Shown here piece by piece: positions 1,663 to 16,178 of a DNA stretch of 31,073 bases; the stretch's first letter is position 1; every line of letters begins with the position of its first letter. The DNA is from a virus. Its lineage: Duplodnaviria > Heunggongvirae > Uroviricota > Caudoviricetes. The position numbers and the translations under genes were made by a program. Below the pieces are notes generated by a model. That model saw only the letters and a list, made by a program, of their open reading frames with translations, searched no databases and had not been told where the DNA came from. Location of the stretch: IMG/VR virus record IMGVR_UViG_2602041669_000008. One strand, 5' to 3'.

Positions 1663-1974
1663 ATGAAACTAGGTAATTTGTTAGCCGCAGCTATCGTTTT
1701 AACGATAACTGCATGTGCCGGAAAAGCTGAAAAAGACCCGCAATATGTAGCCGCAGAGAAATGTGCAGATTTAGTTATCACAAAATCAAAAGCTCTGGCA
1801 GAGAAAGGCATCAGTGGAAAATACGTACTTACATCAAAACTGCGTACAACTTCGACGTCTGATGGTCCATTCACATCAACACAAATCAGAGGCATTCCAT
1901 ATGCAACCTCTACGTTTCTTGATAACGGTAATGAGGGGAGTGCCTGGAGACAATGTATGGGGCCGCTATTGTAA
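1663..1974 (+). CDS. Putative lipoprotein (about 103 aa)
   Basis: Track ORF 1657-1974; second ATG at 1663 has AAGG 7 nt upstream; N-terminus MKLGNLLAAAIVLTITAC has a hydrophobic core and lipobox-like ITAC; AT-rich gene. Confidence 0.55.
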   Translation: MKLGNLLAAAIVLTITACAGKAEKDPQYVAAEKCADLVITKSKALAEKGISGKYVLTSKLRTTSTSDGPFTSTQIRGIPYATSTFLDNGNEGSAWRQCMGPLL

Positions 1975-2007: not shown

Positions 2008-2649
2008 TTAAAAATAGTTTCCCTTTCCAGTTAAGATTCCGTGTGGAACGCTTTTTTCCGCAAGTCTCTGTGTGCCGCGAATTATGTTAATCAGAGGGCT
2101 TAGTAACGATGGTTCCTGGCGTGCCTCAACTTCTCCAGCCATTGCCCTGATGTAGTCGGCGCTGGCAACGTTGTTGTATTCCGTCGCAAAGCAACATAGT
2201 AACGTCAGAACATGCTCTGTCGTTATTTCGCTCCAGTTGATGTTGAAAAATTCATCGCCTTTTTTATCGTGTTCGGAATCGAAGATGCTTTGGTGGAGGA
2301 TGTATTTGCCGGATTCCTTGCGCGGTAACTTGATCGCTTTCTGGCGTTCCAGCTCCTTGTAAATCTGCATTGCTTCAATCAGTACCGGCCTGCCGTTCAT
2401 GAAGGGATCGCGCAACCTTACACGCTGGCCAACTCGACCAGTAATAAAGCTGTTTTCCTCTTCCACCAGCACGATAAAACCCTTTTCCTCTTTTTCTCGC
2501 AATTCGCGCAGCAGCTGGAGTTCCATATCGCGGCGGCGTTCAGGGTAGCTGGTCCGCTCAGCCATTATCAGCTCGTTATTGATCCATGCAGCAGTCATTG
2601 ACGCCGGTTTGCCGACGCTCATCGAAACAACGCATATTTTCTTATCCAT
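2008..2649 (-). CDS. Hypothetical protein (213 aa); occupies the position of mat in the P1 order
   Basis: Internal ATG 2647-2649 with GGGGG 5 nt upstream, in frame with track ORF 2008-2796; no family recognised. Confidence 0.55.
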   Translation of the reverse strand: MDKKICVVSMSVGKPASMTAAWINNELIMAERTSYPERRRDMELQLLRELREKEEKGFIVLVEEENSFITGRVGQRVRLRDPFMNGRPVLIEAMQIYKELERQKAIKLPRKESGKYILHQSIFDSEHDKKGDEFFNINWSEITTEHVLTLLCCFATEYNNVASADYIRAMAGEVEARQEPSLLSPLINIIRGTQRLAEKSVPHGILTGKGNYF

Positions 2650-8816: not shown

Positions 8817-8981
8817 ATTGGCAGCCTCCTTAGACGTTGGTATGTAACCACCGCAGAAGAGACCAATCTTGCTGGCGGTGGACTGTACGGAGTTGGCCTT
8901 ACTGGCGTCCAAGGTAACCAGCCTACCCGAAGGTAGCCCCATACAGCCCACCATTGTAGAGGTGTGCGTGTACGCCGATAC

Positions 8982-9125
8982 AAAAAAAAGACGCGAGCGG
9001 CGTCTGTATCGCCTTAGACTTAAGCGGGAGGCCAATCCCGGCACCCGTTTTAATGAGGTGCCTGATAAGCATAAACCGAAAATGCCTCAAGGCGCAAGAG
9101 GTCAGGCTCAATGTAACATCGGTAG
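8982..9125 (-). ncRNA. Candidate c4-like structured leader/antisense RNA upstream of icd-like copy B
   Basis: Begins just below the operator at 9136-9152; hairpins GGCACC/GGUGCC and CGGGA/UCCCG; ends in stem AGACGC/GCGUCU plus U8 (8982-9005); no ORF. Confidence 0.35.
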
Positions 9126-14817: not shown

Positions 14818-14902
14818 TACATTGAAAAGGCATAGTTTGTGAAAGCGGGGTTTGTAGGCGCGCCACGCTGGGGGCTAATCACATTTCTCCCCCATCTTGC
14901 CG

Positions 14903-15154
14903 TTATTTTTTTGGTGCATCCTCGTTCTGATACACCGGATCGCTCCCTTTTGGCAACTGGAGGCTTAACTGCCGATAGTGCCGTAACCGTTCCATGAAAT
15001 AGGTGCGCAGATTCTCTGGTTGCTCGCGGGCTACCTGTTCAGCTATGACAGGTATGTTCAATCGCTCTTTGTACGCCACACCGCTGGCAGCCAGATCAAC
15101 GTTAACCTTATCCCGTTCTTCCTGACTTTTAGCTGCAATATTCCAATCGTGCAT
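14903..15154 (-). CDS. hot: Hot, homolog of DNA polymerase III theta subunit (83 aa)
   Basis: [39 protein letters not shown] closely parallels HolE; internal ATG at 15152-15154 of track ORF 14903-15175. Confidence 0.85.
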
Positions 15155-15295
15155 ATCAAATCCCATCCAGAACAATTGCGTAACGACTATTATTTAACCA
15201 GCAAAGTAACTTTTAATTTTTTTTCTTTTCCCATTGATTTTTGTGCACAGCTTATCTGCCTTGCCGTGCGCAGAATCAACTTTTTTCTTCCTGAT

Positions 15296-15304
15296 TTATC
15301 CACA
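15296..15304. promoter_or_regulatory. DnaA-box 9-mer TTATCCACA in a coding-poor region
   Basis: Exact consensus 9-mer; single copy, so function is uncertain. Confidence 0.25.
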
Positions 15305-15603
15305 AAGTTATGCACTTGCAAGAGGGCCATTTTCTAAATATTGTGATGTTTCACAAATGAAATGAATTTTGATTAATGAAGATAAGGAGAAAATTTGAGA
15401 TGCAATCATGACGTTAATAGATAGGGTCTGCATTACAGACCCCATCCGCATCAAGGAATTAGCCGTTCCCTGATGTTGTTCCGAAAACATGTGCCGTAAG
15501 CTCACGTTAACGACTTTCTTTCACCGAATCCAACTATATAGGGGTTGGGTTTCTACGTCAACGTGAGCAAGTGCTCCTTTACATTTGACAAGGAACCACC
15601 TTA

Positions 15604-15741
15604 ATGACTGCTTTTTTTCAGTTCCTGAGTGCATTTTTAGATGCGCCTGTTATTAGCCAGATTCTGGCGATCATCCTCATCATCGTTTTGATTTTGCTTT
15701 TAAGGTCAGTAAAAAATGGAATTATGCACTGGCTTACTTAA
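15604..15741 (+). CDS. Candidate small hydrophobic peptide (45 aa, one predicted TM segment)
   Basis: ATG 15604 with AGGA about 10 nt upstream; MTAFFQFLSAFLDAPVISQILAIILIIVLILLLRSVKNGIMHWLT; below the track size threshold. Confidence 0.3.
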   Translation: MTAFFQFLSAFLDAPVISQILAIILIIVLILLLRSVKNGIMHWLT

Positions 15742-15815
15742 TGTTCAGTGAAACATTAAAATCTCCTTGATGTGGAAACAATCATTTTCTGTATGTGCTG
15801 GTGGGTACCTGTAGT

Positions 15816-16178
15816 TCAGCTTTCGTTGGCATTTAACTTCGTCTTTGCTTTCTCCACCAGCAACTTCCAGATGCCTATTTCATTAGCAGCCGCCTTGATG
15901 GCGGCATAAAAAGCATCTTGCTGATCGTAACGCTGAATCTGTTTTTTCAGTTTTGCCTCCACCAATTTAATTTCATTACGTGCTTTCTGAAGCCGCAGCG
16001 CCGCCCGGTTACGTCTGTTCTTGTATAGCGCGTTAATCTCTGATAATTGCTTTAATTTACCAGCCTGACTGCGGATTATCGCCTCTCTGACTTCTGCCGT
16101 GCGTCTCATCTGATCTCTTAAGAGTTCACCGTTTTCGATAATTCTTTCAAGGTGTTTGATGTGATCTGCAACTCTCAT
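15816..16178 (-). CDS. Hypothetical coiled-coil protein (120 aa)
   Basis: Track ORF; start overlaps the stop of the upstream 310-aa ORF. Confidence 0.6.
   Translation of the reverse strand: MRVADHIKHLERIIENGELLRDQMRRTAEVREAIIRSQAGKLKQLSEINALYKNRRNRAALRLQKARNEIKLVEAKLKKQIQRYDQQDAFYAAIKAAANEIGIWKLLVEKAKTKLNANES

Follow-up and report, generated by a model that had tools for sequence, protein, structure and literature searches.

In the window, by which we mean the whole 31,073-nucleotide stretch of viral DNA analyzed here, the 640-bp gap next to hot is by sequence comparison the pmgV-hot intergenic region of phage P1 itself, a compact control region with several promoters. The most likely mechanism, to which we give a probability of roughly 0.4, is that a DnaA-responsive promoter drives a small membrane peptide under the control of an antisense RNA. 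Comparison of relatives suggests that the real products of the region are this 45-residue membrane peptide (hereafter ORF45) and a folded antisense RNA, and not the three upf open reading frames (ORFs).

Identity and Layout of the pmgV-hot Intergenic Region

Positions 15100-15900 of the window matched positions 85832-86633 of phage P1 (NC_005856) at 98.9% identity, and the same segment matched vB_EcoM-813R1 at 99.9% identity. Relatives of the region formed three tiers of identity (≥99%, about 92% and about 77%), and there were additional, distant plasmids that share only a segment resembling the nrdA promoter of E. coli. The GC content across the region was 0.35-0.41, compared with about 0.47-0.52 in the flanks. 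The region is already known and annotated in P1 records, which carry the late promoter LPhot, the minus-strand ORFs upfO, upfN and upfM, and three predicted sigma-70 promoters; a dnaA box was entered in a GenBank record of the 1990s. In a survey of P1-like phage-plasmids, the segment pmgT…upfM-upfN-upfO-hot-lxr-humD was one of eight highly variable regions (PMC9603915), and upfN, upfO and hot were non-essential in a CRISPRi screen in P1 (PMC10695390). The features of the region are as follows.

14903-15166, or to 15175 from the first possible start codon, minus strand: hot, DNA polymerase III theta homolog (ORF list and P1 annotation via the 98.9% match; context only)
15189-15212, minus strand: LPhot, formerly LPr91/LP91, late promoter (annotations of P1 NC_005856 and M95666 transferred by alignment)
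15190-15330, minus strand: upfO, 46 aa, counterpart of E. coli ypaB (P1 annotation)
15220-15344, plus strand: nrdA-like regulatory segment (about 83% identity to E. coli; "nrdA-like promoter" and "dnaA box" of M95666)
15308-15505, minus strand: upfN, 65 aa (P1 annotation)
15381-15568, minus strand: conserved core, candidate structured RNA (conservation, fold and pairing pattern)
15384-15473, plus strand: leader elements, namely AAGGAG at 15384-15389, a 3-codon mini-ORF at 15400-15411 and an overlapping 21-codon ORF at 15408-15473 (read from the sequence)
15521-15634, minus strand: upfM, 37 aa (P1 annotation)
15533-15561, minus strand: PupfN, sigma-70-like promoter TTGACG-17-TATAGT (best promoter-like match in the region, 10/12; also predicted in the P1 record)
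15604-15741, plus strand: ORF45, 45-aa single-pass hydrophobic peptide MTAFFQFLSAFLDAPVISQILAIILIIVLILLLRSVKNGIMHWLT (AAGGA ribosome-binding site at 15590-15594)
15816-16178, minus strand: pmgV homolog, the upstream minus-strand gene (ORF list and P1 annotation; context only)

An earlier note, made from the sequence alone, had described the gap as coding-poor, and the longest ORF between hot and the gene at 15816-16178 is indeed only 65 aa long. The same note had named a conserved protein gene spanning the region in relatives as the finding that would overturn its reading; none of the relatives has such a long gene, and a frameshifted version of one was absent in every relative compared. Its proposal that the gap is "a replaced or regulatory region" held in part: the promoters annotated in P1 support a regulatory region, but nothing was replaced here because the same 640 bp is found in P1 at 98.9% identity.

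At the left end of the region, LPhot is the promoter that transcribes hot leftwards. Its -10 element is AATAAT (15189-15194), the 9-bp late operator AAGTTACTT around -22 lies at 15204-15212, and the mapped start is at about 15181. The sequence of LPhot is identical to that of P1 here, and the start site is annotated as mapped in the P1 record. LPhot thus has what characterizes Lpa-dependent late promoters, that is, a -10 element and a conserved 9-bp inverted repeat centred near -22, and its activation by Lpa (gp10) late in infection is given in the P1 record M95666 and in the literature.

On the far side of hot, P1 has 696 bp with lxr between the humD LexA box and hot. In the window, lxr is missing and about 67 unrelated bases are found at 14833-14899; vB_EcoM-813R1 likewise has about 67 unrelated bases in place of lxr.

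A Captured Host nrdA Promoter and Its DnaA Boxes

Over 115 bp, positions 15220-15334 of the window aligned at about 83% identity with the E. coli yfaL-nrdA intergenic region, in which ypaB and the nrdA promoter lie, and this match was obtained in 5426 of 5426 complete genomes. The segment consists, in order, of an AT-rich upstream part, DnaA box 1 (TTATCCACA, 15296-15304), DnaA box 2 (TTATGCACT, 15308-15316), a -35 element TTGCAA (15316-15321), a 17-nt spacer and a -10 element TATTGT (15339-15344), the last of which is TATCTT in E. coli. Both DnaA boxes, the -35 element and the spacing align column for column with those of K-12, as expected of an nrdAB-type promoter. The "dnaA box" of M95666 maps exactly onto 15296-15303 on the plus strand. 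The homology to E. coli ends at the -10 element and the expected transcription start (about 15350), and neither NrdR boxes nor an nrd leader or nrd genes were found after the -10 element. The -10 region of PupfN was also considered as the NrdR-box part of an nrdA leader, and this candidate was rejected at a local alignment score of 21 versus a null of 17.5 ± 2.3 (p about 0.09).

The exact DnaA-box 9-mer reported earlier was recovered at 15296-15304, where TTATCCACA has its only exact copy in the 31-kb window. Copies with ≤1 mismatch numbered 9, compared with 7.0 expected, so that DnaA boxes are not enriched in the window and the 9-mer alone is not beyond chance. Its presence at this position is instead explained by the homology to the E. 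coli nrdA promoter. On this alignment, the DnaA box of the earlier note is box 1 of a captured copy of the host nrdA regulatory sequence. Both DnaA boxes and the -35 element were invariant in the P1 type, the P7 type, the 77% tier, and plasmids that lack hot and are otherwise unrelated to the region. At the E. coli nrdAB promoter, DnaA activates or represses depending on its nucleotide state, and Fis and IciA also exert control (PMC8203912).

The nrdA-like segment of the P7 type was 93% identical to K-12, whereas that of the window reached 79% and that of the 77% tier 68%; the closeness of the P7 copy suggests repeated exchange with the host chromosome. In the P7 type (L008, about 900-930) and in the hot-less plasmid L010 (about 1385-1412), an apparent remnant of the humD LexA box lies directly left of the nrdA-like segment, so that the P1 type may have acquired hot, together with lxr, by insertion between humD and the promoter.

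The hot-less phage-plasmids (L010, positions 1590-1740; also L007, L011 and L012) have the nrdA-like promoter with a TATCTT -10 element, followed by a conserved unit of ~90 nt. This unit is a candidate small RNA because an invariant bidirectional terminator ends it. In L010, positions 1704-1785 (minus strand) matched the Rfam model of AgrB, which is the antisense RNA to the SOS-regulated toxin dinQ, but below threshold (27.6 bits against a gathering score of 40). The match is probably weak, since it is anchored on the terminator hairpin, which is common to other families. Near it is a 27-aa hydrophobic ORF (2038-2121, plus strand), which has a GAGG ribosome-binding site and a terminator of its own.

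The presence of DnaA boxes raises the alternative that the region acts at the DNA level in replication, as an origin-like or DnaA-titrating element, or that it is a segment that took the place of replication genes. Plasmid replication of P1 depends on DnaA, the region has two DnaA boxes and a low-GC, T-rich stretch, and the T-rich tracts noticed earlier were located at about 15213-15229 and 15281-15287. However, the same region is present in P1, and the ban gene that the earlier note expected in this neighbourhood lies at 71295-72659 of P1, about 13.7 kb from the locus at about 86.0-86.6 kb. The iterons and further DnaA boxes suggested as a check were searched for in the window, which yielded neither tandem repeats nor an excess of DnaA boxes; the direct repeats present were short and had two copies only. 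In addition, an adjacent rep gene is absent, and the boxes are placed exactly as in the nrdA promoter, beside the -35 element. A cluster of DnaA boxes or iterons next to an initiator gene marks an origin, whereas one exact and one near box are found here. We therefore consider a replication element highly improbable.

Annotated upf Frames and the Predicted Plus-Strand Peptide ORF45

We next consider the possibility that the P1 annotation is right and that upfM, upfN and upfO encode genuine small proteins and are transcribed together with hot. All three are annotated in P1 and, in some version, in P7; a separate PHROG exists for UpfM; and UpfO is 65% identical to E. coli YpaB over 40 aa. However, the last likeness follows from the promoter DNA that the two share, and the PHROG of UpfM is P1-only and is the sole family match of that protein. 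Furthermore, the reading frames of upfO, upfN and upfM are not maintained in relatives. upfO is interrupted by an in-frame stop in the 77% lineage and also changed in the P7 type; upfN is frameshifted in the P7 type and has a frameshift and stops in the 77% lineage; and in upfM, the 77% lineage shows a deletion of 1 nt as well as stops. The NCBI pipeline calls none of the three and calls ORF45 instead. These observations make three functional upf genes improbable; upfO in particular is probably not a functional gene. The P1 reference annotation of the upf genes is thus probably wrong, and the plus-strand membrane peptide is the better-supported gene.

The 45-aa hydrophobic ORF on the plus strand, already pointed out in the earlier note, was found at 15604-15741, with AAGGA (15590-15594) located 9 nt ahead of the ATG at 15604. 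Its start, stop and length are identical in all three lineages, the ribosome-binding site is kept, and by tblastn 228 of 229 plasmids carry the full-length frame. In the comparison with the 77% tier, no indel was found in the 138 nt of ORF45, compared with 4 events in 109 flanking nt. The mean hydropathy of the peptide is 1.6, and 1.7 in the 77% lineage. When 31 substitutions were simulated, the probability that ORF45 stays open was 0.17, and the probability that it stays open and is at least as hydrophobic was 0.004. The codon changes comprised 8 synonymous and 18 non-synonymous ones, and a third-position bias was absent. The frame has been called as a hypothetical protein by the NCBI pipeline (WP_000123562.1), in phage SJ46 (J46_0085) and in phage JL22 (JL22 gp107).

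ORF45 gave no family match in Pfam, NCBIfam, PHROGs or PADLOC. Searches for remote homologs among 5.8 billion clustered proteins and 1.84 billion representatives returned only P1-type sequences, a peptide-pattern search in representative genomes returned none, and tblastn returned none beyond the three tiers. A relationship to LdrD was also considered and dropped, as BLASTP gave no alignment with LdrD. Note that in pIPCEC31_2 (L070), IS1 is inserted in the 3' end of ORF45, and that in ON470617.2 (L004, the closest phage relative), ORF45 has a frameshift in a T-run near its start, which is possibly a sequencing error.

The TTGACA hexamer mentioned in the earlier note is present at 15585-15590. 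As a promoter it was rejected, because reading the sequence gave no acceptable -10 element at 16-18 nt and the promoter scan did not flag it. A terminator-like site at 15629-15646 was rejected as well; it is weak and lies inside ORF45, and such matches occur at chance frequency.

A Conserved Candidate Minus-Strand RNA with Its Own Predicted Promoter

Conservation in the region is concentrated in a core. Identity to the 77% tier was 88% at 15381-15475 and 95% at 15476-15568, compared with 64-78% in the neighbouring segments. The 188 nt of the core are predicted to fold at -61.3 kcal/mol (z = -4.89) on the minus strand and at -53.1 kcal/mol (z = -2.77) on the plus strand. The consensus fold comprises hairpins A (15500-15568), B (15449-15475) and C (15419-15447), and the core tail (15381-15402) is invariant, single-stranded in the fold and the complement of the plus-strand AAGGAG Shine-Dalgarno sequence. 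The two short hairpins of the earlier note fall within this fold. The first is hairpin C, with an 11-nt inverted repeat at 15420-15430/15436-15446, and the second, CCAAC/GTTGG at 15531-15549, is the tip of hairpin A, which is a larger inverted repeat (15500-15512/15556-15568). Both are more than chance hairpins, because they lie in the block of 88-95% identity between flanks of 64-78% and because hairpin C has a compensatory change.

The pairing pattern was strand-specific. On the minus strand, 99.2% of the cells were standard pairs, including 45 G·U cells, whereas on the plus strand the figure was 87.0% with no G·U pair, since every imperfection becomes an A·C mismatch there. As a control, cells were paired at 99% with the predicted partners and at 30-49% with the partners slid. 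Variable columns were found at 4 of 84 paired and 14 of 65 unpaired positions (Fisher p = 0.002), indicating that stems were spared. One compensatory pair, UA to CG, was found in hairpin C; the covariation support amounts to this one pair because 38 of the 41 stem pairs never vary. That all wobble pairs are on the minus strand points to RNA and not to DNA hairpins, which also speaks against the replication element considered above.

Rfam gave no family match in the region, and a covariance model of the core found only its own source; neither the window nor the hot-less plasmids yielded another copy. Searches of viral, metagenome and genome collections for more divergent copies of the core returned only the same three tiers. 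Long-range pairings of the plus strand were not conserved in the relatives compared. Specifically, an inverted repeat (15340-15354/15748-15762) by which the plus-strand mRNA could fold back 5' to 3' was not conserved in the 77% lineage and was attributed to chance.

PupfN lies within hairpin A and faces the nrdA-like promoter, with a predicted start at about 15526. It is unchanged in 33 of 33 unique variants; note that promoter-like matches in the region overall were at chance level (4 found compared with 3.2 expected). With predicted starts at about 15526 (minus strand) and about 15350 (plus strand), some 175 nt would be common to both transcripts. The predicted overlap coincides with hairpins B and C and with the invariant AAGGAG and its very short ORFs. 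The Shine-Dalgarno block of this leader is invariant, and the 21-codon leader frame stays open, with mostly non-synonymous changes as judged by reading the aligned codons. The U-tail of hairpin C is weak, and the hairpin was not called as a terminator. These data suggest a conserved, strand-specific RNA structure that has an invariant promoter of its own and was previously undescribed here.

The same fold could be read differently, as a cis-acting part of the pmgV-to-hot transcript, that is, a structured intercistronic leader, a processing or stabilizing site, or a partial terminator ahead of LPhot. In that case, the T-rich strand opposite would be open over ORF45 only incidentally, and the nrdA-like segment would be a relic of recombination. 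Consistent with this, pmgV and hot have the folded strand as their sense strand, and hairpin A can form only in transcripts that come from upstream of PupfN. The substitutions in ORF45 look neutral, the probability of an open frame is 0.17, and ORF45 is disrupted in two natural isolates. The region is moreover dispensable for P1 growth (PMC10695390). However, P7-type plasmids keep PupfN, the core and an intact ORF45 without hot or any credible downstream minus-strand gene, so that the core is not merely a leader of hot. A relic is further argued against by the nrdA-like boxes and -35 element, which stay unchanged even among distant plasmids whose downstream DNA is different, and ORF45 remains free of indels and keeps its hydrophobicity while its flanks decay. 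We regard a cis element as unlikely on balance, although it is a serious competitor.

Proposed Mechanism and Its Significance

According to the antisense-controlled peptide mechanism that we favor, the nrdA-like promoter would transcribe a leader of ~250 nt and then the membrane peptide ORF45. PupfN, located inside the leader, would fire in the opposite direction and yield a strongly folded minus-strand RNA containing hairpins B and C. This RNA would be antisense to the leader, including its Shine-Dalgarno sequence and short upstream ORFs, and the two would together amount to a small membrane protein under cis-antisense control, much as in type I toxin-antitoxin loci. DnaA and Fis would act on the sense promoter as they do on that of host nrdAB. 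In addition, read-through minus-strand transcripts could supply non-late expression of hot. Such read-through would fit the expression of hot in lysogens that Chikova & Schaaper 2007 reportedly found.

A broader version can be formulated, in which the peptide and the structured cis-antisense RNA would constitute a module of the P1 family, the captured nrdA promoter would tie its expression to the replication-initiation state of the host, and related plasmids would reuse the promoter for a different short RNA. We put this forward as a speculative proposal and hold it doubtful in its full extent. The retention of a faithful copy of the host nrdA regulatory sequence in several lineages of phage-plasmids hints at a reading of host DnaA and replication status. 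Should the antisense-peptide module prove real, it would represent a second addiction-like or host-sensing function beside phd-doc and humD, and it would help explain hot expression outside the late phase.

Comparison with Known Systems

The closest known counterpart is the hot-upstream region of P1 (NC_005856, about 85.9-86.6 kb; M95666, nt 1-710), which has the same LPhot, the same nrdA-like promoter with its dnaA box, and the same predicted PupfN. It differs in that lxr is present on the far side of hot in P1 and absent in the window. In the P1 record, three minus-strand upf ORFs are annotated, whereas ORF45 and the RNA element are not.

The promoter segment resembles E. coli nrdAB/ypaB in that two DnaA boxes abut a TTGCAA -35 element, followed by a 17-nt spacer and a TAnnnT -10 element in the same layout. 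On the other hand, the window copy is without the nrd leader, a significant NrdR-box match or the nrd genes, and its downstream sequence is phage-specific.

As in the hok/sok and ldr/rdl type I toxin-antitoxin systems, a small hydrophobic peptide lies behind a long leader with short upstream ORFs, a convergent promoter is located in the leader, and the predicted antisense RNA is rich in stem-loops; the setting is a low-copy plasmid prophage. ORF45 has the size and hydrophobicity of a type I toxin, being shorter than 60 aa, hydrophobic and predicted to span the membrane. For the antisense partner, the invariant convergent PupfN and a conserved, structured minus-strand RNA are predicted, with no clear terminator. 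In contrast to hok/sok and ldr/rdl, the upstream ORF in the window does not overlap ORF45, and a conserved fold-back or a structure that sequesters the Shine-Dalgarno sequence is absent here. Searches of Rfam, Pfam, NCBIfam, PHROGs and PADLOC matched no described toxin or antitoxin family. In its overall arrangement the region resembles type I toxin-antitoxin loci, but it cannot be classed with them: no known toxin or antitoxin family matches, and both the RNA and any toxicity are putative.

The last system to be compared is the c4 antisense RNA of P1 (immI). The core has no similarity to the C4 model and differs from c4 in position and targets, but like c4 it would be a structured regulatory RNA encoded by a phage of this genome family. 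RNAs of the C4 family also occur elsewhere in the window. On its minus strand, 1271-1356, 1425-1477, 8871-8958 and 8984-9061 scored above the Rfam gathering score; these matches comprise a pair of antisense RNAs of the C4 family, an a1/b1 C4 target and an IsrK-like RNA. By simple collinearity with hot, their positions are not those of the P1 immI region.
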